Source of the DNA: a virus
Virus record (IMG/VR): IMGVR_UViG_3300048929_000185
Location: 59,207 to 123,206 of that record
Reading direction: 5' to 3' (one strand)
Length of the DNA stretch: 64,000 nucleotides
Shown here: in pieces, positions 2,516-64,000 of the stretch
How the letters are laid out: the number at the start of each line of letters is the position of its first letter
Position numbering within the stretch: the first letter of the stretch is position 1
The notes under the pieces: model-generated
Databases searched by the model: none
Seen by the model: only the letters and a program-made list of their open reading frames with translations
Told to the model about the DNA's origin: nothing
Made by a program: the position numbers and the translations under genes

Positions 2516-2606
2516 GATAACTACCTCCATTTAATTTAACTTAATTATTCCCACTATTAAAGCCACCGGAACGCTGTCCAATGGCTTTAAACTGTGGATA
2601 AAAGTA

Positions 2607-2813
2607 CTATTCTATGTGTATTAATGATTCTCTAACCACTTTCAAAAGTGCGGTAAAATTATCTTCATGTATTGTATAATCTGAATAATAGTTTTTAAGT
2701 TTCCAACCGCTTTTGCAACCAATGACGCACCAAAACCCATCATCATCTTTATATATATCTTTAATGGCAGCGTGATACTTTTTAGGTATCCTATTTAATA
2801 ATTTTTTATCCAT
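2607..2813 (-). CDS. Hypothetical early protein
   Basis: AGGAG RBS. Confidence 0.7.
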   Translation of the reverse strand: MDKKLLNRIPKKYHAAIKDIYKDDDGFWCVIGCKSGWKLKNYYSDYTIHEDNFTALLKVVRESLIHIE

Positions 2814-2856
2814 ATATGTTATCTCCTGTTTGTTTTAGGTTAAAATCCGCATTTTA

Positions 2857-3027
2857 TTAAGCAAATAGGTTCATGGGTTTCATAGTCTTACTTGCTACCC
2901 AAGACTTCCAACCATATGAATAATAAACGTTTGTATATTCTGGATTTTCGTTACTGAATACGATTGCCTCTTCTTCAAAATCAAATGTATAAAAATCATG
3001 CGTTTTGTTATCTGTATAACGTTCCAT
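2857..3027 (-). CDS. Small hypothetical protein (56 aa, MERYTDNK...)
   Basis: Read manually; GGAAGG RBS; fills the gap between two intergenic motifs. Confidence 0.6.
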   Translation of the reverse strand: MERYTDNKTHDFYTFDFEEEAIVFSNENPEYTNVYYSYGWKSWVASKTMKPMNLFA

Positions 3028-3069
3028 TTGATTACCTTCCCTTTTACTGTCAAAGAATAGTTTTATTTA

Positions 3070-3312
3070 CTATTGTTTAAGTACGGAAAAACCTTTTTCG
3101 TTTTCCATATCGTAAAATAAACTTGCTTCTTCTAATGATATTTCATCTATTGATTCTATATCATGTGTTTTATAATGATATTTCATCATATCAGTTTTCA
3201 AGAAATTCCATACTTGTTCTCTTGATGGCTGTTCTACATCTGATTTAATGCAAATACCGTAACTATCAGTGAATAAAATTTCATAATACTTTGTGTTCTT
3301 GCAATATTTCAT
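3070..3312 (-). CDS. Hypothetical early protein
   Basis: GAGGAGG RBS. Confidence 0.7.
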   Translation of the reverse strand: MKYCKNTKYYEILFTDSYGICIKSDVEQPSREQVWNFLKTDMMKYHYKTHDIESIDEISLEEASLFYDMENEKGFSVLKQ

Positions 3313-3349
3313 CTTCTTTTCCTCCTCATAAAATAATCGTTTAATTGGT

Positions 3350-3559
3350 TTAATACTTCAATGTAAAATCATCTGTTAAAAGAATGTCGTGTACCCCTTT
3401 AATGAAATGAACGTATCCTTTCTGATTTATGTACCATTCCTGCCCCTTTGTGTTATAGATATTGTTTGATGTGTAACTACCTACAACACTGTTTATAAGT
3501 TCTTCTTTTAGCTTTATACAAGCATTATTTGTATAGGCTTCTTTAATACAGTAGGCCAT
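3350..3559 (-). CDS. Hypothetical early protein
   Basis: GGAGG RBS. Confidence 0.7.
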   Translation of the reverse strand: MAYCIKEAYTNNACIKLKEELINSVVGSYTSNNIYNTKGQEWYINQKGYVHFIKGVHDILLTDDFTLKY

Positions 3560-3582
3560 GTCATTTCCTCCATTCTACACCT

Positions 3583-3651
3583 ACGGACTTGTGACCGTCT
3601 GACTTGCGTCAGGTGCATTAAAACGGCTATGTGTCAGCCGTTTCACTCTGC
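3583..3651 (-). ncRNA. Twister self-cleaving ribozyme, circularly permuted (P5-type)
   Basis: Minus strand GCAGAGUG-[P1 hairpin AAACGGCU..AGCCGUUU]-UAAUGCAC-[P3 CUGAC gcaa GUCAG]-ACGGUCACAAGUCCGU matches the twister core; predicted U|A cleavage at 3620/3619. Confidence 0.8.
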
Positions 3652-3654
3652 TGA

Positions 3655-5408: not shown

Positions 5409-5464
5409 TTTTCCTCCTTTATTTTTGATTATTTATGCAGTTTATTACATATTCATACAGACAA

Positions 5465-6000
5465 TAAGCCAATGATTCCAAAATAAGAAATTCACTACAT
5501 ATTAAGGATTGTGTAGCAGAGCCTCTCCTGATGAGTAGTTGCCAAGAGCCTTAATCATTGTTCCTTCCATACGTCTCAGATATGTTTGGTTTATATATTT
5601 GCCTGCATGATAAATAATAAAATGTATAACTGTTTATCCGTTCTATAATTGATTGCCTATAACAAATAGGACTTTGTGATTCCGTTCTATTCTTCTGCCT
5701 GATACTCACAGGCTCGTTATTTCGTTCAATTTGGATTCCAGTATTGTCCTATGGAATTTGTTTATTTCTATGCCGTAATGCAAGCTGATTTCACTTGCTG
5801 ACAGCTTCTATATATTCTTACGTGTCTACTTTTTCAGGACTGCCTAACCTATGGACAATGGCTACATTCTTCACTGTAGCAGATTCAAGGAAAGTCACTT
5901 TTCACATCACGTCTTAACCGTATAGAATCGGTTATGTGCAATATTCGGTTTTTTGTTATGCCGTTCAATATGTGATCAGCTTCGCCACTGATATTTTCTA
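5465..6000 (-). ncRNA. Candidate large structured ncRNA or 5' leader
   Basis: No ORF >=60 aa; many hairpins and a long-range helix 5743-5754/5848-5859; downstream of the minus-strand promoter at 6140-6168. Confidence 0.45.
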
Positions 6001-6023
6001 AGGAAATTTGTGTGCGATTGCAC

Positions 6024-6125
6024 TTGAAAAGTTAATAAAAGAATGTTAAAATACTTACATCAACTTTCAAGTTGTAGAGAAAAGAGTTTTCATTGATTGG
6101 TCGTCGGTGGAACTCTTTTCTTATT
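6024..6125 (+). ncRNA. Candidate antisense sRNA with own promoter and terminator
   Basis: TTGAAA-17-TAAAAT (6024-6052), then hairpin AAAAGAGTTTTCATTGA-TTGGTCG-TCGGTGGAACTCTTTT. Confidence 0.5.
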
Positions 6126-6139
6126 TCCTTTGATGATAT

Positions 6140-6168
6140 AAGTATAACACGATTTTTGTTATTTGTCA
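6140..6168 (-). promoter_or_regulatory. Sigma70-type promoter overlapping an ATAAC..GTTAT operator
   Basis: TTGACA-17-TATACT with extended TG; related palindrome ATAAC-N7-GTTAT at 6426-6442. Confidence 0.7.
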
Positions 6169-6392
6169 ACACTATTTTTGTTACTTTTTAAATCATTTTC
6201 ATGTCTGAGTATGTCTCCTATGTCGCAGTTAAACAGATTGCATATATCGTCTAAAAGCTTAACTGGAATCTGTTTTGACTTATTATTACACAGATCGTTG
6301 ATAGTTGGAAGTCTAGCGTCTATTTTATTTGCTAATTCCTTTTGTGTTAACTCATGTTCAGCTAATAGGACTTTGAGTCTGGATTTAATCAC
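6159..6392 (-). CDS. XRE/Cro-C1 HTH transcriptional regulator
   Basis: RLKVLLAEHELTQKELANKID..LDDICNLFNCDIGDIL; GTG start after AAGGTGG. Confidence 0.85.
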   Translation of the reverse strand: MIKSRLKVLLAEHELTQKELANKIDARLPTINDLCNNKSKQIPVKLLDDICNLFNCDIGDILRHENDLKSNKNSVDK

Positions 6393-6535
6393 AATATCAC
6401 CACCTTTATAGTTAATGGTTATATTATAACACAAATCGTTATGTACTAACATTCCTTTATTAACTTTTCAAGGTTCACACATCAAATTTAGTTTGGGATT
6501 TTCGTCCAGAAAGAAATACAAACGTATGTTTAGAC

Positions 6536-6640
6536 TTGAAACATTAGTTTCAATGTGATACACTCAGACTGTGTAAAGTGGTGTATCGCCATACGTTCAT
6601 GGGTCTGATAGTTGGAAGCTGTCAGGCTCATTTTTATTTC
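6536..6640 (+). ncRNA. Second candidate antisense sRNA with own promoter and terminator
   Basis: TTGAAA-17-TACACT, then hairpin ATGGGTCTGATAG-TTGGAAG-CTGTCAGGCTCAT-TTTTT. Confidence 0.4.
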
Positions 6641-6728
6641 CTATCGGTACAAGCTGTGAACCACTTGTCGTAATAGCCTTTGTGTGAATTGCACCCACTC
6701 CCATAATGTTCTATGGGTAAGACTTGAG

Positions 6729-6926
6729 TTAAGGCTTAATGTTTAAATATGGTTTAATGTTGATTGTGTCTGAAATGTCGGACAGCTTGGAGCATAACAC
6801 GTTTTGGATCTCTTCCTCTATGTCTACTTGAAATGCAAGTGATTTGAATACCTTTCTGCACTTCTTTACAATCTCGTCTTGGATTGCTTGCGGTAACTGA
6901 CATACGTATACTACCATGATTATCAT
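6729..6926 (-). CDS. Hypothetical protein
   Basis: AAAGGA RBS. Confidence 0.6.
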   Translation of the reverse strand: MIIMVVYVCQLPQAIQDEIVKKCRKVFKSLAFQVDIEEEIQNVLCSKLSDISDTINIKPYLNIKP

Positions 6927-6939
6927 TCCTTTCTGTCAT

Positions 6940-6994
6940 ATCCTGACTGGCAATTAAGCCAGTCGTCGTAATTCTCAACAACTCGTCAGAGGAT
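6940..6994 (-). ncRNA. Hammerhead-like ribozyme, degenerate (GAC in place of GAAAC)
   Basis: AUCCU-CUGACGA-[stem II]-GAC-[UGGC..GCCA]-GUC-AGGAU. Confidence 0.45.
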
Positions 6995-7366: not shown

Positions 7367-7498
7367 GTTATTTCTTGTATTTTGTAGATATAATATTGCA
7401 CAAACATAATAGATATATCTTGTATATTATGTACATATCTTTTATAATAAAGACTATGCTATGATGTACTACTGTCCACAAGAAAGGAATAATGAATT

Positions 7499-7720
7499 AT
7501 GACATATACAAATACTCCTGATATACTGAATTATATCCGTCAGTTGATGGTAAAGAAACGTATGCAAGTAAAGGATATAGCCATTAATATGAACAAGTCG
7601 CAAGGCGCTACAAGTGCATTACTGCGTCAGGAGAATATAAGCCTTGAATCCCTGAATGAGATCTGTCAGGCAATGGATTGTCAGTTAGTCATTGATATCG
7701 TCCCAATGGATCGCGAATAG
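7499..7720 (+). CDS. XRE-family HTH regulator
   Basis: MQVKDIAINMNKSQGATSALL..SLESLNEICQAMDCQL. Confidence 0.85.
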   Translation: MTYTNTPDILNYIRQLMVKKRMQVKDIAINMNKSQGATSALLRQENISLESLNEICQAMDCQLVIDIVPMDRE

Positions 7721-7937
7721 TTTTGTATGATCCTGATTCGCTACTACTGCTATGTATGTGTTATTTGGCTCGTAATCGTAACTATTTGCCCTTGTAATGC
7801 GTTTAGGCTAGGATTGTTAGCATAAAGGATTTAAGCCGTAAATGAGCCGTTTAAGCGTGTTATAATGCATTGTGTTGGTGTTTATGTTATTACTGTATTT
7901 CGTTTGGTTATGTAAGAACACTCGTTTGTATGTTATT

Positions 7938-7966
7938 ACTATATATCTTTGTCTAGAATCTGTCAA
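7938..7966 (-). promoter_or_regulatory. Sigma70-type promoter
   Basis: TTGACA-17-TATAGT; SOS-box-like GAACACTCGTTT just downstream (7915-7926). Confidence 0.6.
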
Positions 7967-9697
7967 GAAGAATTTTTGTGAGTTGATGGATTATTTTTTA
8001 ATGGAGTGAATGATTATGATGAGTCGAGGTTAATTGTTACTAGATATCGCTGTGAACGTTGTATTCGCCTGTTGCTGACGTTGTGATGATGTGAGTGTGG
8101 AATTGTTAGGGTTGATAGGTTGAGTGGGTAAATAAGACGATATGAACGTTATATGATGATGTGTATCGTGATAACTTTGTGCTTAGGTGTCAGGAGTTGG
8201 AACGTGATGAATGACTGATAGTGTTGAGTGAGTGGAATCAGGTGATAGAATGGTGATGGCATAAGATGATAATTCATAGTGGTGTGGTGTAATATATGTA
8301 GTATTGTAAACTATGTATAATGGTAATCATATCTATTAATGTGAATGTGTTGTAAAATCGATGATGACATACGTAGTATTGATTACTGTGTAGTGATGTG
8401 TTATGTACTGTTATATACTGTTTAGTAGACTATGAAAAATTAGTTCAAAAGTGAACCATTATTAGATCCGAACAGGTATGTTGTAGATAAAACGTTTTCG
8501 TTGTTTTCACAACGTAATTGCAATCAATACCAGTTGACCGCTAATCAACCGCCAGATACGTCATGAAATGGTTCAATACTTGACTATCAACCCAATACTC
8601 CTACGGTCAAAGTTAATATTCAAAAATCCTATAACTACATATTAACACCAAAATAGTACGTATTTACTAGGTTTCAAGGCTATTTCATAGGGTGGGGGTA
8701 AGTTTACATTTTCAACGACCACCGAAAAGCAGCCAGGAGGCATATCTGTTCCACTCACACATAACTCCCCATTTTCAACTCCGAAATCACCAAAATCGCC
8801 CAATTTAACTATACAAGTTGCACAAAGAAATCACCAAATAGTTCGGTATCGAGTTCGGGGATTTTCGAAGTCATTACCAGTAAGTACAGTAAAATCAAGC
8901 ACTTTAGTGACTATACAATATGCACAAAAAAATAATAACACGAAAAATCACTCTATTTTCACCATCAAAATCCTCGCAAACCCTTATAAAATAAGCATTC
9001 TCCCGAACTCACCCTAAAAATGTAAAAATGAGCACTTAAATCACCAAAATTTGCACCAAGAATGACCACTAAAATCGCAATAAACCCTTATAGAATAAGG
9101 ACATTCTCATCTCTCACCGAAGTACTCTCCCGAAGTCATATAAAAAATTCATGTTCAAACTCATCTTAAATCACCATAAACGTAGCAATAACAAGGAGAA
9201 TCTCCCATAACACAAAATATTTTCATCTTACAGGCTCAAAATACTACTCTTATTACACAGGAAAAATATCAGAAAAAAAGAGAATAATCCAGTAAAAATG
9301 ATCAGATTCGTAAGATAGTGATTTATGCATACCTTATTATAGGCAAAATAAATATGATACGCTCATAGCATAAAGTAAATAGTCACAATCCAGCAACAAG
9401 CATAATCAAATCAGTAACCATAAAAACCAAAATATAATAAGCGGCATATCTTACACAAATAATCCAGTCCAATAATCTAAGCAGCATTAATCTCTCACAA
9501 TCCCAAATTAATCTAATATCTCTACTCTCCTATCACTCAACTATTCTTACTACTAATCTATTGCTCAAATTCGCGAAAATAGCATCAAAAATCCATTCTC
9601 TACTATTTAATGGAGAAATACTCATCTACAGGCTAAAATCCAGAATTGGTACCAAAAACGCAAAAATAAGCACGTAAAAATATTTCATAAAAAAGTG

Positions 9698-9726
9698 TTG
9701 ACAAAGAAATGTAGTAATGATAAGAT
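9698..9726 (+). promoter_or_regulatory. Promoter of the rightward (RNAP) operon
   Basis: TTGACA-17-TAAGAT with extended TG and an A-rich UP element. Confidence 0.7.
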
Positions 9727-10064
9727 AACAGTGTAGCAAGAGTAATACAGTAATATTATAAATAAAAACTCATGGCAGTGAGATAAATGTAAATACCATT
9801 TGTTTTCCCTACACTTTATGACGTACCTTGAAAATTACATATGGAAATAACCAACAAGTATTAGTGTGGTTTTGGATGGAGTATTTAATATTGAGCGTTA
9901 GCGAAATATTAAATACGTAATGTTTTGTTTTATTAATAGGTTTATCTTTTATTTCAGTTCAGTAGACAATGCATTTGCACCCTCTGCTGAACTCTGGTGA
10001 AGATTCACGGGGATACATTTGCATAGTTTACTGAACTCTCGCAAAAGAAAAAGGAGGGATCTTA

Positions 10065-10856
10065 ATTAAGAAAGATTATTTTACAAGGATACCCAATCAG
10101 TATATCAGGGGGGATATCCGCAAGTTATACGGAGTAAGCAGAAAGTTCTATATCACCTACATATTAATTGATCGTTATCGGTCACTTGAAGACTTTAGCT
10201 GGATTACGATAAAAAAGATACTTAACTATTATGGGCTGAAGAATACCAGGAATAAGCCAAAGGCGTTTAAAGAAATCTTAGATGTACTGGAATACATGGT
10301 AAATAGCAAAATGATATCCATTGCTCAAGACATGGATTCTATTACATACGATACGGGGATTGAAGTAAAGATAATTTCAGACAACTTTGACTTCCCTAAA
10401 AATTTCTGCAAGTTTGAATTCTGTGTGTTTGATAAGATTATGGATTCGGATTCTGCAATCAATAACGAGACTTTGTTGCTGGCCTATATTTATATCCTAT
10501 CTTATATAGGCGAAAAAGGTGAACAGCATAAAGAAGAAAGCGACTATGAGTATTTAGAAAGGCTCAAAGAGTATCCAAGAGCATTCTTTAAAGACATTAG
10601 TAATATGGCAAAAGATCTATCCATGTCAAAGGATACGATAACAAAATGCATTAATTATTTTTTATCTGAGCAAATGCTTGTGAAGAAAACGGTGGGAAGT
10701 ATAAAAAAAGACGGTAAACCACCTCAGAACGTTCCAAATATTTATGTTTTAAATAATGATGAGTGCCAGCAAGAAATTGACTGGGCATTAGAAAAAATGA
10801 AAGAGATTTATAAAGTAGACTATTTTGATGAGATTAAAGGAGGAAATAAAAATTAA
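10065..10856 (+). CDS. HTH-containing replication-initiator-like protein, probable ATT start
   Basis: Frame open for 77 codons upstream of ATG 10296 to an ATT after AAGGAGGG; ISNMAKDLSMSKDTITKCI HTH and PNIY motif. Confidence 0.65.
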   Translation: MKKDYFTRIPNQYIRGDIRKLYGVSRKFYITYILIDRYRSLEDFSWITIKKILNYYGLKNTRNKPKAFKEILDVLEYMVNSKMISIAQDMDSITYDTGIEVKIISDNFDFPKNFCKFEFCVFDKIMDSDSAINNETLLLAYIYILSYIGEKGEQHKEESDYEYLERLKEYPRAFFKDISNMAKDLSMSKDTITKCINYFLSEQMLVKKTVGSIKKDGKPPQNVPNIYVLNNDECQQEIDWALEKMKEIYKVDYFDEIKGGNKN

Positions 10857-21050: not shown

Positions 21051-21710
21051 ATGTTAATAGAAATTGCAAAATTTAATAAGGTAGAAACAACTGTAGTGAG
21101 TAGTCTTGATGTATCAGAAACATTTGATAAACATCACCGCGATGTAATGGAGTCAATAAGGACGATAGGTTCAAACATTAGTACAGCGGAATTTTCCGCT
21201 CTATTTAATTTGACATCATACAGAGCTTCTAATGGTAAAACCAATCCTATGTATGTAATGACAAAGGACGGATTTACACTTCTTGCAATGGGATATACAG
21301 GTGAAAAAGCTATGAAGTTTAAACTTGCTTATATTAAGCAGTTTAATGCAATGGAAAAAGCTTTACAGGGAAAACTTATTGAAAGAGAAAAAGGAATTGC
21401 CGTAAGGCAGTCTTTGACAAAGGCTCTACAGCTATCAACAGAAAATGAGAGAATGCATGGACATGCATATTCAAATTATACAAATTGTATATATAAAGTC
21501 TTATTTGGCATGAACGCAAATCAGTTAAGAGATAAATATGGAATTGGTAAAAACGATCAGATAAGAGACTGTTTGTCAGAAAATGAGTTAAGAGCAATAC
21601 AATCCATGGAAAGCATGGTGAGTGGATTGGTTGATTGCGGTTGGGGATATGATCAAATTAAAACTTTTATTGAACAAACAAATACAACAAAACAATTAGG
21701 AGTGGCTTAA
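21051..21710 (+). CDS. Rha-family phage regulatory protein
   Basis: SSLDVSETFDKHHRDVM..MTKDGFTLLAMGYTGEKAMKFKLAYIKQFNAME. Confidence 0.9.
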   Translation: MLIEIAKFNKVETTVVSSLDVSETFDKHHRDVMESIRTIGSNISTAEFSALFNLTSYRASNGKTNPMYVMTKDGFTLLAMGYTGEKAMKFKLAYIKQFNAMEKALQGKLIEREKGIAVRQSLTKALQLSTENERMHGHAYSNYTNCIYKVLFGMNANQLRDKYGIGKNDQIRDCLSENELRAIQSMESMVSGLVDCGWGYDQIKTFIEQTNTTKQLGVA

Positions 21711-21751
21711 TGTCACTCTCTTTTTATTAGCAAAAGAGGGGGAGTGAGTGA

Positions 21752-22783
21752 ATGGACGGTAAAATTGCAGACCGTAGCGATGATATAACAGACGAAATGT
21801 GGCTTGAAGTAAATGAGTTTAATCGTAATATGGTTCAGGAATACTTAGAAAATCAGGCTGAATTAGCAGTAAAAACAAAAATAGGCTACGAATCAGCGTT
21901 AAAAATATTTTTCTACTGGGTGAAAGAACATCTGAATAATAAAAGTTGCCTGGAAATAAAAAAGAAAGAATTTGTAAGATACTTAAACTGGCTTACAAAC
22001 AGAGGGCTTTCGGATTCGGCTATTAAGTTTAAGAAATCTGCGGTAAGCAATATATGTAATTACATAATGATGATGTACGAGGAGGAATATCCTACCTTCA
22101 GAACGTTCGTAACAAAGGAAATGAAAGTGGTAAAAACCGGTTATGTACACCCTAAAATCCCGCTCACTCCTGATGAATATGTTCATTTATGCGAAGAATT
22201 GGAGAAACGAGAGGAATGGGAGAAACTAGCCTACCTTATGTTTTCTTATTCTACAGGTTGTCGTAGAGCTGAAGCAAGACAATTACTAAAGGAAGTAGTT
22301 AATTATACTCCCGTTGAAAATGAAATTACAATTATCGATGAAGATAAAAATGAGCAAAAAGTGATGTCTAAAAAATACATAACACACACAATTCGTTGTA
22401 AAGGAGCTTCCGTAATCGGAAAACCAAGAAAACTTAAATTTGGCGAAGAAGTCATGGACGTATTTAAAAAGTGGTTAGAGGTACGTGGTGAAGATGATAA
22501 CCCATATATGTTTACCATTAATGTAAAGAAAACTGGAGAGGTTAGACAGGTTGCAGAAGGAACATTTAATGGTTGGTGCAAAGGCTTATTTGCTGAAATA
22601 GTTGGTCGAAGAGTTCATCCTCATCTATTTCGGGAGTCAAGAGCTACAAATTTAGTCGTTTATGAACATAAATCTGCTGAAGTTGCTCAGAAATTATTAG
22701 GCCACAACGATGTAACTACCACGAAAAATCATTATATTATCCGAAATGATGAGGCTGACGAATCTGACGAAGCATTCACTTAG
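21752..22783 (+). CDS. Tyrosine recombinase (XerC/D-like)
   Basis: STGCRRAE (R), KG, HLFRESR (HxxR), LLGH, HY. Confidence 0.9.
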   Translation: MDGKIADRSDDITDEMWLEVNEFNRNMVQEYLENQAELAVKTKIGYESALKIFFYWVKEHLNNKSCLEIKKKEFVRYLNWLTNRGLSDSAIKFKKSAVSNICNYIMMMYEEEYPTFRTFVTKEMKVVKTGYVHPKIPLTPDEYVHLCEELEKREEWEKLAYLMFSYSTGCRRAEARQLLKEVVNYTPVENEITIIDEDKNEQKVMSKKYITHTIRCKGASVIGKPRKLKFGEEVMDVFKKWLEVRGEDDNPYMFTINVKKTGEVRQVAEGTFNGWCKGLFAEIVGRRVHPHLFRESRATNLVVYEHKSAEVAQKLLGHNDVTTTKNHYIIRNDEADESDEAFT

Positions 22784-22864
22784 AATCCAACTTTCATTGG
22801 TAAAACACAGGCTCGCTTGCCGAGGGAATTGTAGTAGCCAATCCGGGCACTCCCCTGTCTAAAA

Positions 22865-23218
22865 AAAATTGTGAACGATTGTTACTTAAAAGAACCGTTA
22901 AGTCGGCAATTCAAAAAGAAATGAGTTAATAACTCAAACCTTCGGGTATGAAATCCCAACAAAAAATAATATTGGTTCTGACGTGCATGGGAAGTCAGAT
23001 TAAATGTGGTCAATCAGGTAACGGTATCTGAGCGTAAAACAACCAACAGCAGGAAGAGCTTGCTGCTTATCAAGGCGAGGTTGGTAGACCTACTGAACTG
23101 CCTAGGAACTGACATGCTTCCTAGAAAGGTGAAAACCGTATGTTTAAGTGCGATAGAATTAACTGTAGGCGAAACGCCGTACTTCCGTATTATTGGAAGT
23201 GTGTCATTTGACACTATA
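22865..23218 (+). ncRNA. Candidate large, multiply pseudoknotted ncRNA (ROOL/GOLLD-like context)
   Basis: At least 7 hairpins, closing helix 22878-22890/23143-23154, pseudoknots ACCGTTA/TAACGGT and GCATG/CATGC. Confidence 0.6.
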
Positions 23219-23275
23219 TATTAATAATTCAGAAGAGACAACTACTCTCCTATCTTGCCGAAAGGAGTAATTAAA

Positions 23276-24157
23276 TTGAATATTAACCAAAATACAAACT
23301 TTGGAACACACAATACATCTGTGCGTCCAGGCAAAATAGAATACATAATTATACATTACGTAGGAGCCACGGGTGATGCAAAGGCAAACATAAATTATTA
23401 TAATCAGCCAACTACTACAAATGCATCTGCCGACTTCTATGTCGGATTTTCCGGTGATGTATGGCAATACAATCCTGATCCAATCTCTCGCTATTGTTGG
23501 GCAGTAGGAGGAAAGAAATTATCTACGGGTGGTGGATCATTATACGGGATTGCTAAGAATGTCAACTGTGTAAGCGTCGAAATGTGTGTTAGGAATAATG
23601 GCAGCAAAGCAGATACAAGCCGAGACTGGTATTTTGAAGATGCCACTGTACAGTCAGCTATTGAACTTACTAAAGAACTGATGACTAGATACAATATTCC
23701 AGTTGATCGAGTAATCAGACACTATGATGTGACGGGAAAGATTTGTCCAAATCCTTACGTATACGATCATACTAAACATACATGGACTGATTTTAAGGCG
23801 GCTCTCACTGAACAAAAAACACATGAAAAGAAATCCGGTTGGAAACAGGAAGACGGTGGCTGGCGCTTTTATAACGGTGACACCGGAGAATGTATTAAAA
23901 ACGACTGGTATCATGACACAGAAAAAAATTTATGGTACTGGTTTGACGGAAATGGAATGATGGTTACAAATACATGGTATCAATATAAAGGTGGTTGGTA
24001 CTATCTCAACGCAGATGGCGCTATGTGCAGATCACAACTTGTAGAAAATAATGGTAAGATCTATGCTGTTGATTCTGATGGAAAGATGGTAACTGGAGAG
24101 GTATTGGTATCAACATTAAGCGATGGATCTTTACAGTATAAAGGGTTAGCAAAATAG
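23276..24157 (+). CDS. Endolysin: Amidase_2 N-acetylmuramoyl-L-alanine amidase with C-terminal cell-wall-binding repeats
   Basis: IIIHYVG, SADFYV, VSVEMC, IRHYDVTGKICP; WYYL/GWK repeats; TTG start after AAAGGAG. Confidence 0.9.
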   Translation: MNINQNTNFGTHNTSVRPGKIEYIIIHYVGATGDAKANINYYNQPTTTNASADFYVGFSGDVWQYNPDPISRYCWAVGGKKLSTGGGSLYGIAKNVNCVSVEMCVRNNGSKADTSRDWYFEDATVQSAIELTKELMTRYNIPVDRVIRHYDVTGKICPNPYVYDHTKHTWTDFKAALTEQKTHEKKSGWKQEDGGWRFYNGDTGECIKNDWYHDTEKNLWYWFDGNGMMVTNTWYQYKGGWYYLNADGAMCRSQLVENNGKIYAVDSDGKMVTGEVLVSTLSDGSLQYKGLAK

Positions 24158-24168
24158 GAGGAATAAAA

Positions 24169-24462
24169 ATGGAACAGATTATGAAATATATTAAACCGGA
24201 ACTTGTAGTTGTGGCTGTAGTTCTTTATTTTATTGGCATGTGGATTAAACAGGGACAGCTTATTAAAGATAAATATATTCCACTGGTTAATGGAGCCGTA
24301 GGGATCGTTCTGTGCGCTATTTATGTGTTGGCGGCAACTACATTCGGTAACACACAAGAGTTCGCTCTAGTGGTGTTTACGGCGCTCACACAGGGTATTC
24401 TTGTGGCAGGATTAAGTACATATGTTGACCAGATTATTAAGCAGATTAACAAGGACGAATAA
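24169..24462 (+). CDS. Phage holin
   Basis: Three hydrophobic segments, DKYIPL and QGILVAG motifs; follows the endolysin. Confidence 0.85.
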   Translation: MEQIMKYIKPELVVVAVVLYFIGMWIKQGQLIKDKYIPLVNGAVGIVLCAIYVLAATTFGNTQEFALVVFTALTQGILVAGLSTYVDQIIKQINKDE

Positions 24463-24655
24463 CGGATAAATGTAATGTTTTATTGGAGAAATAAATATTC
24501 GCAGTAGATATGGGACATCTCTCTGAGGTGTCTCTTTTTGTGTTGCGAAAACACTAAAACATGGGAGACATGCTGGAGTAGCTACCAGCGTGAGTTAGGT
24601 CTACCTACCCTACTCTCCCATTATTATTTTTTGTAGGTAGAGAAAGTAGGTAAGT

Positions 24656-26302
24656 ATGGTTTCAGAAGAGGAATATAAGCAAAGATTGCAAAAGGTTCAT
24701 GGCAATAAAATTAAATTGGTGTCTGGATATAAAGGCACCTCATTTAAAGCAATTCATTGTTGTGAAAAACATAATTTTGAATATGAAATGTTTCCATATG
24801 CCGCTTTAAGGGGACAAGAATGTAGATATTGCATGAAAGAAAAATTAAGAAATGCTGCTCTTATATCAGAAAGTGAAGCGAAACGTAGACTATTTAACAC
24901 GTATGGAAATGAATTTGAATTATGCGAAAAATATCATGGAGTATCCGAAAACATAAATTTAAGCACAACTTAAAAGATGGAACGAATCATATATTTATGA
25001 CGACATTTACTTTGTTATATTTAGGAGAATGCTGTGGTATATGTAGCAATAATAGAGTTCTAGTTGGATATAACGATATTGGAACAACAAACCCATATAT
25101 CGCGTCATTATTTTCAAACAAAGAAGATGCTTATAACTATGTAGAATTAAGCAATCAAGAAATTGAATTTATATGTCCTGATTGCGGAAGCCGTTCAAAC
25201 CAAATTATTGCTAAAGTTGTAAAAGGGAATAGAGTGCTATGTCCATACTGTTCTGATGGAATTTCGTATCCTAATAAATTTATATATAACTGTTTGATGC
25301 AAATATCATACGAATTGGATTTTATTCACAGAGAATACAAACCTAATTGGTGTAAATTTAAATTAAAAATAAAAGCAAAACTGGTATTTATGATATTTAT
25401 TTTGGGATTAATGGTAAAAAATATATTGTTGAGATGGACGGAGGTTTTCATAATAATCCATATGTAAAATCTGAATTATCTATTTCAGACTCTAAGTACA
25501 TAGATGAACAAAAAGATTTATTGGCGATGCAACATGATATAGAGGTTATTAGAATTGATTGTGATTATCGAAAAATATCTGAAAGATACTCCTTTATTAA
25601 ACAGAACATGTTGAAATCTATTTTATCAAAAATTATAAATTTAACACATATAGATTTTCATGATGCAGACATTAAATCGCTACAGTCTTTGTTAATTGAA
25701 TCTTGCAAATTATGGAATGACGGAATGACAGTTACTAATATAGGAGAAGCTATTGGTGTTAGTGTACAAACTGCCAGATCATATTTAACTTCCGGAATGA
25801 AATGTGGATTATGTGACTATTCAAAGAGTTTAAGTAGAATTCGTTCAAAAACTCAAATACCCGTAATATGTTTAAACGATTTTTCTGAATATAAAAGTAT
25901 TACAGAAGCGGCGGAAAAATATATGCTAACACCTGAATCAATAAGGTCTTGCTGTTGCGGTAAAACATTATCATCTGGAGAAGAAAATGGAAATAGGATT
26001 GTTTGGAAATATTTAGATGATTTTGCACATATGAAAACAAAAGATATAAAGCAATGTTTGATTGACGCGTATACAAAGAAAGTAGTTTGTATATCTAAAA
26101 TATATTATTCGCTACAATTAAAGACGCTGCTGAATGGACTGGAGTAAGTTCATCTGCAATAAGTAAATGTTGCACGGGACTTAGTAAATCATGTGGAATA
26201 GATACAGATAAAAACACCCCAATGCATTGGAAATATTATGATGATTATATAGTAAATAACGATATTAGCACTCTAATCCTTTATGGAAGATTGAGTGCTT
26301 AA
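24656..26302 (+). pseudogene. Free-standing zinc-ribbon / PD-(D/E)xK endonuclease with NUMOD1-like repeats; three single-A frameshifts
   Basis: ORFs 24656, 24922, 25434 and a final frame to TAA 26302 join if one A is added near 24950, 25368 and 26099; shares CSDGISYPNKF and VEMDGG with 39077-40255. Confidence 0.75.
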
Positions 26303-62888: not shown

Positions 62889-62914
62889 TAAAATCGTGAT
62901 TTATTGGCATTTCA

Positions 62915-62985
62915 AGACTATATATAGTGGTTTATATAATATCATTCCACTATATATAGTGTATGCCGATACAATATGTTGTGTG
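62915..62985. promoter_or_regulatory. Tandem NrdR-box-like palindromes
   Basis: ACTATATATAGT at 62917 and 62949 (32 bp apart); weaker ACAATATGTTGTG at 62971. Confidence 0.45.
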
Positions 62986-63181
62986 TCTCATCTTATTTAT
63001 TCATATCACTATCAATAAGGGCTTTTACATATCCACTCATAGCTTTGTAGCTTTGTGTTTCATAATGGGCCTTTATGGCTTCGTATTCGTCAATGGGAAT
63101 ATAGACTTTTACAGTCTTGTAAGTTTGCTTATTGTATTCCCTGACATATTCTGTTCTTTCTTGCATAAAAAATTAATCCTT

Positions 63182-63367
63182 TCAACTATCCATATCCGCG
63201 TCAATAAGGGCATTTACGTAACTGTTTAATGATTTGTACCCCTTGGCTTTCCAATGACTTTCTATGACAGCTTTCTTGCCTTTAGGAAAATTGATACTTG
63301 CGCGGTCATAGGCTTCTTTTGCAAATTCATTTTTGTACTTAGTAGAATTAAAATCACTCATATCCAT
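63182..63367 (-). CDS. Arc/RHH-like small DNA-binding protein
   Basis: YKNEFAKEAYDRASINFPKGKK..SLNSYVNALI; AAAGGA RBS. Confidence 0.7.
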   Translation of the reverse strand: MDMSDFNSTKYKNEFAKEAYDRASINFPKGKKAVIESHWKAKGYKSLNSYVNALIDADMDS

Positions 63368-63616
63368 TCCTTTCAGCATTTTTTGCGCGCCAACTTCATT
63401 ATTGATTATTGTAACACTGAACGATAAAGAAAAATCCACCCTTAACACGGTAAATGTTTTTCAGGGTGGATTTTCTGTTTACATAGATAAGTTAAAAAAA
63501 TAGCCTACCCTGCTGCAAACAAGGCATACACGAGTTGCGAATACTCATGTATTATCGGTTACTTTAAATTAATTATATCACGAGGATAGTTAAAATTCAA
63601 GTTGCAATTATTATTT

Positions 63617-63856
63617 TTAATCGCAAGTTTCCTCTTTATATGGCAAGATCTCTATTGTCCTAGCCTTTGTCGGATCACGCCTTATATATCCCATCTCTTC
63701 TATCTTTTTTAGATTATTAGATATGGTTCCTGTAGACTTAATCCCCAATGCTTCGCCTATCTCATGCATTGATGGTGGATATCCCTTATTATAAACGTAG
63801 TCAAGAATGTATCGGTATATCTTTGACTGTGTATCGGTCATGTTTTGCTTTTTCAT
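63617..63856 (-). CDS. LexA DNA-binding domain-only protein
   Basis: TQSKIYRYI..GYPPSMHEIGEALGIKSTGTI..LKKIEEMGYIRRDPTKARTIEI; ends with no S24 protease domain. Confidence 0.85.
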   Translation of the reverse strand: MKKQNMTDTQSKIYRYILDYVYNKGYPPSMHEIGEALGIKSTGTISNNLKKIEEMGYIRRDPTKARTIEILPYKEETCD

Positions 63857-64000
63857 ATTTTCATACCTCCATGGTATGATTATATCATATGTGATTCAAG
63901 AATTAAATATGTAGTAATGTTAAAAGCACGCAAAAAAATAAAGCCAGAAATTAATCTGGCTCTAGTATTATTTCTTATCCGTATTCTCTAATATATTTTT

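Follow-up and report, generated by a model that had tools for sequence, protein, structure and literature searches.

ROOL and GOLLD RNAs have been reported near the transfer RNA (tRNA) genes of phages, and phage T4 encodes among its own tRNA genes the 'species 1 and 2' RNAs, stable structured RNAs other than tRNAs whose function was long unknown. Closer in kind to the element described here is the put RNA of phage HK022, which is about 70 nucleotides (nt) long, folds into two stem-loops, lies at the promoter or 270 nt past it, binds RNA polymerase and overrides terminators without any phage protein (PMC9378689). The control of late genes supplies a further comparison: according to PMC3753634, Sigma70_r4 and DUF1492 are two families of Ltr late activators, whose target promoter lies between ltr and terS, in a gap that holds a late promoter and a terminator. 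Here we consider a stretch of 64,000 nt of phage DNA (the window), which is the final 64 kilobases (kb) of the IMG/VR virus record IMGVR_UViG_3300048929_000185 (123,206 bases, rated 62% complete), and in particular the gap between its tyrosine recombinase and endolysin genes. A first-pass annotation had proposed that positions 22865-23218 of this gap encode one large, ornate, pseudoknotted RNA. What we find is a mosaic of blocks, one of which, an RNA motif of 87 nt that we call M2, recurs with a conserved fold at the head of late genes in other phages.

The starting clue was a local resemblance: positions 22969-23015 of the window are 98% identical to the related locus L042 while the flanks are not, and in two further loci, L055 and L067, the same flanking words enclose a different hairpin. 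Further copies came from pattern scans of three sequence collections, whose candidates were screened first by eye and afterwards with a covariance model. In the window, the motif is made up as follows.

22966..23052, + strand: M2, conserved Y-shaped RNA motif, 87 nt, described by covariance model R1
22970-22976 with 23042-23048, + strand: P1, the closing stem of 7 base pairs (bp)
22977-22982 with 22994-22999, + strand: P2, with a conserved 11-nt loop, GUGCAUGGGAA
23000-23004, + strand: linker UUAAA
23005-23007 with 23039-23041, + strand: P1a
23008-23013 opposite 23032-23038, + strand: internal loop, GGUCAA opposite GCGUAAA, strictly conserved
23014-23020 with 23025-23031, + strand: P3, the variable terminal hairpin

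P1 is stacked on the P2 hairpin, and the second arm carries the conserved internal loop and ends in the variable tip P3. When 11 copies are aligned plainly with MAFFT, RNAalifold predicts the four helices P1, P2, P1a and P3; 93.0% of alignment cells are paired and both sides have changed at 11 of 23 pairs, with none of 500 shuffles as high and slid controls at 28-44%. We built R1 from these 11 seeds. Its match to the window, at 22966-23052 and over model positions 1-87, scores 95.6 bits with an expectation value (E) of 4.4e-27, a figure that is partly a matter of construction because the window is itself a seed. The match is full-length and includes P1, P2, P1a, P3, UUAAA, GGUCAA and GCGUAAA, which places the sequence in the M2 family; the 123-kb record contains no second copy. 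Nine loci outside the seed score 43-92 bits.

Across the 20 distinct copies recognised by R1 (19 full-length copies plus L302, which is truncated at its 5' end), 92.4% of 446 cells are paired and double changes are seen at 13 of 23 pairs, in 52 cells; again none of 500 shuffles does as well, and slid controls reach 27-41%. Note that this count leaves out duplicates (L301, identical with L251; L297, identical with L294; and L256 and L258, re-fetches of L251 and L254), loci from contigs already represented (L042, L055 and L067, counted as L120, L149 and L180), a copy cut by a contig end (L296), and three weak matches, namely L259 (26.6 bits, flanked by ordinary bacterial genes), L247 (21.3 bits) and an additional match in L229 (13.3 bits). 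The fold is specific to the sense strand, because 54 cells hold G.U pairs that would be A.C on the other strand: over the 20 copies, 92.4% of cells pair on the sense strand versus 82.5% on the complement. Folded alone, the M2 sequence of the window has the same structure as its minimum free energy (MFE) fold. We conclude that M2 is a genuine structured RNA, a covariation-supported family of about 85 nt that is absent from Rfam 15. The idea that the gap encodes a new class of late phage RNA thereby holds for the 87-nt motif, with its covariation, its absence from Rfam 15 and its link to late genes, but not for the 354-nt unit for which it was put forward.

M2 is absent from 96 of the 99 related loci searched. 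Among 151 genomes sampled from the family of G001 (the genome of L251), two match, one being G001 itself and the other the discounted 26.6-bit match beside ordinary genes; among 151 sampled from the class, G001 alone does. Both counts are a floor, 29 candidates having been scored per genome. One Lachnospiraceae genome has two copies, in prophage-like contexts, and the copy in L251 belongs to a prophage of a cultured strain whose record is labelled Konateibacter massiliensis Marseille-P3773. As far as searched, then, the family is confined to phages and prophages of Lachnospiraceae-type Clostridia.

Wherever flanking open reading frames (ORFs) are listed, they run in the same direction as M2, a few doubtful antisense ORFs aside (e.g. 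L299 826-1284). In large phages (contigs of 24-128 kb) M2 comes after the recombinase or some other gene and, in the window, L120 and L149, ahead of the endolysin. A tRNA gene is found 89-308 nt downstream on the same strand in eight loci (L161, L209, L229, L248, L251, L254, L180 and L298), and in L291, one of the small phages or prophages described below, a tRNA at 2544-2610 on the - strand (53.6 bits with Rfam, missed by ARAGORN) lies directly against the 3' end of M2, so that 9 of the 20 copies have a tRNA no more than 308 nt downstream on the same strand. A tRNA-like stretch with a T-arm-like CCCGGTTTAATTCCGGG also lies just upstream of M2 in L294 (about 3060-3140, - strand).

In small temperate phages and prophages, a gene encoding 139-166 amino acids stands immediately upstream of M2. 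Its product matches Sigma70_r4_2 and DUF1492 in L257 and L299, PHROG 36 ('transcriptional regulator') in L257, L299 and L291, and, weakly, Sigma70_r4_2 and HTH_23 in L294; the large terminase subunit is encoded about 0.7-2 kb downstream of M2 in L294, L291 and L299. Right after M2, three loci encode an RNA-polymerase alpha-CTD protein (PF03118, E 2e-17 to 3e-16; L214 4869-5846, L303 3491-4258, and L300 4145-4690 on the - strand), and these proteins may be terminase-small-subunit-like DNA binders or transcription factors. In five small phages (L214, L290, L303, L300 and L302) M2 ends about 10-25 nt before a Shine-Dalgarno sequence and must therefore be part of the mRNA there. Under a strict terminator rule, 6 of the 20 loci have a terminator within 300 nt downstream of M2 (that of L302 lies inside the next ORF) versus 2 of 20 upstream. 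By eye, a long-loop hairpin with a T-run follows M2 at 40-80 nt in L294, L299 and L257, and an imperfect hairpin with a T-run precedes the tRNAs of L180 and L248. Overall, M2 heads late transcription units and always lies on their sense strand. An apparent 'extended -10' element upstream of M2 in L120 and L209 was discarded once it turned out to be the 3' terminus of a different module, one that L277 also has.

How does this motif relate to the rest of the gap? The genes that border it are the following.

21752..22783, + strand: tyrosine recombinase gene (Pfam PF00589, 4.4e-17, with N-terminal SAM-like domains; PHROG 1 integrase, 1.5e-35)
23276..24157, + strand: endolysin gene (Amidase_2 and choline-binding repeats, by Pfam; probable TTG start at 23276)
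24169-24462, downstream of the endolysin: holin gene (Pfam)

All genes flanking the gap lie on the + strand. TTG 23276, which shares its frame with the listed ORF 23255-24157, is the most likely start of the endolysin, because relatives align from query residue 3-8 onwards and AAAGGAG stands 8 nt upstream; with this probable start the gap runs from 22784 to 23275 and measures 492 nt. A conserved peptide in the ORFs at 23006 or 23014 had been named as an observation that would count against an RNA, and this objection is not borne out. The small ORFs 23006-23224 (+), 23014-23214 (-) and 22882-23013 (-) match no Pfam or PHROG family, and the DNA of the first two consists of the RNA motif, with hairpin insertions and deletions that are not in threes, or of sequence unique to this phage.

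To ask which parts of the gap are shared, 116 loci were fetched first: 36 contain a recombinase relative, and 80, out of 193 such loci, an endolysin relative. Searched against these with blastn and nhmmer, a 471-nt gap sequence matched only in pieces, in four contigs. The recombinase is 72-88% or the endolysin 76-87% identical in relatives, yet only blocks of the gap are held in common: in L002, with a recombinase 88% identical, likeness in the gap is limited to the last 40 nt. L036 shares with the window 22784-22805, 22888-22916 (29 nt) and the last 110 nt or so (23161-23270); it lacks 84 nt around 22806-22887 (22804-22887 as aligned), and over the central 240 nt no alignment is possible. Neither 22806-22887 nor 23053-23160 has a blastn homologue in any fetched locus, later fetches included. 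The same gap holds tRNA genes in the relatives L004, L005, L006, L030, L031, L041 and L067. These number one or two per gap, are specific for Ser, Tyr, Asn or Ile, and lie after the recombinase or before the endolysin. The 354-nt object is thus not a conserved unit, because relatives share blocks only and carry tRNAs in the same gap. A hairpin-dense phage gap can resemble one ornate RNA when, as here, it is made of independently moving modules. Besides M2, these are as follows.

22784..22805, + strand: 22-nt block directly after the recombinase stop codon, with a small hairpin, CCAA/TTGG
22806..22887, + strand: GC-richer stretch unique to this phage, then A8; a gap in the L036 alignment
22888..22969, + strand: blocks upstream of M2 (blastn), conserved as sequence, not as hairpins
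23053..23160, + strand: hairpins unique to this phage (ACCAAC/GTTGGT domain, CTAGGAA/TTCCTAG, GGT-GAAA-ACC)
23161..23222, + strand: three adjacent perfect palindromes or hairpins (GGCG-AAA-CGCC, ACTTCC/GGAAGT, GTGTCA/TGACAC)
23223..23275, + strand: endolysin leader hairpin AGAAGAG-N7-CUCUCCU (one A.C mismatch) and Shine-Dalgarno AAAGGAG at 23261-23267

The first block is 100% identical in the contigs of L036-L039 and in L040, similar by eye in L002, L042 and L254, and could be a gene terminator or a site linked to the recombinase. The GC-richer stretch could be a small mobile insertion; 22800-22875 folds about as well as its shuffles do (z -0.37 on the + and -0.47 on the - strand), and a resemblance of 22806-22887 to Twister was dropped, as no model matches and the fold equals shuffles. 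Upstream of M2, 22888-22916 is shared with L036 and 22913-22969 ('M1') with L040, L042, L254 and part of L248. A hairpin proposed here, TGAGTT/AACTCA, has TT changed to CC in its 5' arm in both L042 and L254, without compensation. These blocks could be a promoter or a protein site.

Downstream of M2, the hairpins unique to this phage fold with z -1.25 (23040-23092) and -2.15 (23095-23145, with 8 of 200 shuffles as good). A decayed tRNA was considered for 23053-23160 and finds no support (no ARAGORN call, and no match to RF00005 at E<=10). The region 23161-23270 is common to two L036-type contigs (82.7% by blastn), in which the stems are identical, so that no change is informative, and the ACTTCC loop differs in length; GGCGAAACGCCGTA, from the block 23161-23222, is also present in L120, and 23160-23255 folds with z -2.47. 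It is equally possible that the palindromes of 23161-23222 are RNA hairpins or DNA operators. The hairpins of 23053-23222 as a whole are lineage-specific additions. The endolysin leader hairpin is kept in 7 of 8 aligned loci linked to the endolysin, with only part of it in L067 and with stems that hardly vary. A perfect version precedes a tRNA in L041, and a like hairpin with a T-run precedes the tRNA in L251 and, by eye, in L180. Other non-coding modules exist that are absent from the window: a block around AATGACTGCTGTG.GGTCAA is common to the arrays of L040, L120, L180 and L254, and another of about 110 nt is common to L180 and L251, ahead of their tRNAs.

If the gap is a mosaic, what remains of its apparent architecture? 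All eight local hairpins that the first-pass annotation had quoted are present, near the positions given. Their density is real: 22865-23218 contains five perfect hairpins with stems of at least 6 bp versus 0.79 +/- 0.86 expected, a number reached in none of 300 dinucleotide shuffles. The excess of folding energy over shuffles is only modest and hardly specific to one strand, the 471-nt sequence reaching -118.3 kcal/mol for the + strand (z -2.50, equalled by 0 of 100 shuffles) and -116.3 kcal/mol for the - strand (z -1.96, equalled by 2 of 100). The long-range pairings fare worse. The closing helix proposed at 22878-22890/23143-23154 comes down to 7 contiguous A/T-rich pairs (ACTTAAA/TTTAAGT), and the 7-bp pseudoknot ACCGTTA/TAACGGT, although its complementarity exists, is likewise at chance level: counting both, there are four perfect 7-mers at least 40 nt apart versus 3.11 +/- 2.11 expected, and 114 of 300 shuffles equal this. 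TAACGGT is the loop side, or variable tip, of the M2 hairpin P3, and ACCGTTA lies within a block that is 100% conserved in L036, a locus without M2. The helix ACCAAC/GTTGGT, with its GTTGGT arm at 23081, does exist as a hairpin in the sequence, but the strand that it sets opposite GTTGGT is, in 20 homologues, paired with TTGGTT at 22972-22977 instead. The partner in the proposed GCATG/CATGC loop-loop contact falls within sequence for which no homologue was found. Two partners considered for the P2 loop, the J2/3 linker and the downstream CATGC, proved by eye inconsistent among homologues. The earlier observation is thus partly confirmed, in that the hairpins are real and the ornate architecture is not.

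Searches against known families point the same way. The comparison with ROOL, GOLLD and the rest of Rfam that had been proposed as a check gave no match in the gap: run on the whole window at gathering score, cmscan reports neither ROOL nor GOLLD nor anything else except a Twister-P5 self-cleaving ribozyme (3583-3652, - strand; 51.3 bits, the gathering score being 37.6), and at 22600-23400 with permissive filters and E<=10 it returns two junk matches of 12-14 bits and no ROOL, GOLLD, abiF, tRNA, ribozyme or riboswitch. At gathering score, GOLLD is likewise missing from 17 related loci and 14 M2 loci, the latter yielding tRNAs only, and no Rfam family covers the gap or M2 in the 17 related loci or in the gap of L120. 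ARAGORN finds no tRNA in the 64-kb window, and RF00005 none at E<=10 in the gap. A blastn search of the GenBank phage collection with the gap at distant settings gave no match, and within the 123-kb record the gap recurs only as chance matches of 15 nt or less.

The sequences show the mosaic, the fold, its strand and its placement. Taken as a whole, we regard as evenly poised the view that 22784-23275 is a non-coding, hairpin-rich leader ahead of the lysis genes, assembled from separately inherited modules rather than forming one large closed RNA, and that M2 heads late transcripts. As to how M2 might work, the mechanism that we prefer, tentatively, is a put-like one. M2 would be made as the 5' part of a late transcript and would act on that same transcript. 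Its partner would be a component of the host, because the unpaired bases conserved in M2 are common to otherwise unrelated phages. The folded RNA would bind the transcribing host RNA polymerase, allowing it to read through the hairpin-plus-T stops that follow, as put does in HK022.

The two RNAs are alike in being small phage RNAs (about 70 nt for put, about 85 nt for M2) with two stem-loops, placed, for M2 by prediction, in an operon leader ahead of terminators, and the fact that put needs no phage protein fits the conservation of M2 across unrelated phages. Of what a put-like RNA would have, M2 shows two stem-loops (P2 and the P3 arm) and a sense-strand fold; terminator-like hairpins lie downstream in 6 of 20 loci under the strict rule and in more by eye. 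However, M2 differs from put in its third, closing helix, P1, and in its conserved internal loop; and put occurs in enterobacteria and in early operons whereas M2 occurs in Clostridia and before late genes. A similar balance applies to the ltr-terS region, with its RinA, ArpU, LtrA, LtrB and LtrC activators. M2 follows a Sigma70_r4/DUF1492 or PHROG 36 regulator in L257, L299 and L291, and weakly in L294, and it stands ahead of terminase genes in L294, L291 and L299. In contrast, that literature describes DNA repeats bound by an activator and no folded leader RNA, and the window has no Ltr gene beside M2, which there has the recombinase and a Rha-like gene upstream.

Several observations weigh against a put-like role, or against the strength of the case for M2 on which it builds. 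In sequence M2 and put are not alike, and an Rfam model for put was not seen among the matches. Of the three sequencing runs in which the stretch occurs, none is listed as RNA. The energy of the M2 fold alone is no better than that of shuffles (z -0.48); many of the 20 sequences are close kin, so that the significance obtained by shuffling is overstated, and the 20-copy count rests on an alignment fitted to the model, which flatters the result. The strict terminator count downstream is only 6 of 20, and in the five small phages no terminator separates M2 from the first gene. In 21500-24700 there are 11 sigma-70-like sites versus 10.8 expected, and no promoter was identified upstream of M2. Finally, the tRNA that abuts M2 in L291 and the terminators right after M2 elsewhere fit a released, stand-alone small RNA equally well.

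This last possibility deserves separate attention. M2, perhaps together with neighbouring modules, might be a discrete, stable small RNA acting in trans, cut out by terminators or by tRNA-processing enzymes and titrating a host protein, for example as a decoy against a defence toxin that is guided or neutralised by RNA. We consider this a rather doubtful account, albeit one with several points in its favour. The modules are reshuffled among phages as cassettes; a tRNA adjoins M2 in L291 and follows it at 89-308 nt in eight more loci; and terminator-like hairpins follow it in several. In this respect M2 also recalls species 1 and 2 of T4, 9 of the 20 copies lying just upstream of a tRNA, although the window itself has none. 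A neighbouring module brings in a defence gene: L120 4083-4139 shows 86% identity across 57 nt with an element of a Lachnospiraceae genome, L277 908-1000. That element closes with a terminator, a GC hairpin and T-run, and an Abi_2 domain match follows about 0.5 kb downstream of it. L209 has a module that resembles that of L120. RNA antitoxins of AbiF are real, as PMC12373285 reports, and the abiF RNA motif (RF03085; RCd22 of C. difficile, an AbiF antitoxin) is, like M2, a small hairpin RNA of Clostridia and their phages.

However, the link to AbiF fails for this window. RF03085, a hairpin model of 37 positions, is unmatched at E<=10 in the gap, in the whole 123-kb record and in the gap of L120, whereas as a positive control of sorts it matches 5 of 20 Lachnospiraceae Abi_2 loci at 31-37 bits. 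The phage record has no Abi_2 (PF07751) gene. The AbiF-linked module of L120 is absent from the window (best blastn match 15 nt, E 0.039; nothing with nhmmer), a comparison of the gap with 30 Abi_2 loci gives the same result (best blastn match 15 nt at E 0.039; nothing with nhmmer), and R1 has no significant match in those 30 loci, the best reaching 11.4 bits with E 1.1. We therefore rejected an AbiF decoy for this window, RF03085, the Abi_2 gene and the L120 module being absent from it and M2 being unlinked to the 30 Abi_2 loci. More generally, no host-side M2 was found outside prophage-like contexts (2 of 151 genomes in the family sample, one of them discounted, and 1 of 151 in the class sample), and the position of M2 near the ribosome site of the first late gene in five small phages is that of a late mRNA and not of an early anti-defence function.

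A different objection would be that the conserved blocks work as DNA: as a target or dimer-resolution site of the recombinase, as promoter or operator palindromes, or as a packaging site. The gap does begin straight after the tyrosine recombinase gene, GTGTCA-TT-TGACAC and ACTTCC-N8-GGAAGT are perfect palindromes, M1 and the 22-nt block after the stop codon are conserved as sequence without hairpin covariation, and M2 lies near terminase genes in small phages. For the other blocks this reading may hold, but for M2 two observations argue against it, and overall we regard it as quite unlikely. Compensatory double changes at 13 of 23 pairs, together with the 54 G.U cells, indicate a single-stranded fold of the sense strand, and M2 is found remote from any recombinase in L161, L209 and L214.

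That M2 serves the late leader as a riboswitch sensing a ligand, or as a ribozyme cleaving itself, is in our view very unlikely, notwithstanding a three-helix junction, the strictly conserved unpaired UUAAA, GGUCAA/GCGUAAA and 11-nt loop, a location in the 5' untranslated region in five loci, and the Twister-P5 elsewhere in the same phage. P3 is variable, and a variable terminal hairpin is typical of many aptamers and ribozymes. Yet the riboswitch and ribozyme models of Rfam give no match; a consistent expression platform is lacking, the next gene being about 20 to more than 300 nt away and P1 standing clear of terminator and ribosome site; and the genes downstream (tRNA, endolysin, PhoH-PIN, terminase) are functionally unrelated, unlike those behind a metabolite switch.

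The last alternative, that 22865-23218 is a single large closed and pseudoknotted RNA, ROOL-like or of a new giant class, is most improbable and largely refuted: it can point to a hairpin density above chance, to the z of -2.50 for the gap and to a non-coding location in a phage of Firmicutes where relatives have tRNAs (as is reported for ROOL and GOLLD), but no ROOL or GOLLD covariance model matches at gathering score or at E<=10, the closing helix and pseudoknot are at chance, the 354-nt unit is conserved whole in none of the fetched loci, ACCAAC/GTTGGT conflicts with the covariation-supported P1, the - strand folds nearly as well (z -1.96), and what is conserved is 87 nt rather than several hundred, with no conserved global fold.

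The window may hold more non-coding RNA elsewhere, namely in stretches that lack ORFs of at least 100 amino acids: 7367-10295, 5409-6994, 2531-3654 and 62889-64000, one of them 2.9 kb long. R1 has no match in these other long ORF-poor stretches.

Returning to a put-like M2, its wider implication can be stated only conditionally. M2 might be a processive antiterminator of Gram-positive phages that consists of RNA alone and is independent of protein, a second class unrelated to put, such that tRNA, lysis and packaging genes behind leader terminators would be expressed only from the promoter whose transcripts begin with it; from the comparisons made here we judge this extended version rather unlikely. 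Whatever its mode of action, M2 is common to phages that differ in size and gene content and is a candidate for a new Rfam family. It offers a concrete handle on late-gene timing in the large and temperate phages of gut and rumen Clostridia.

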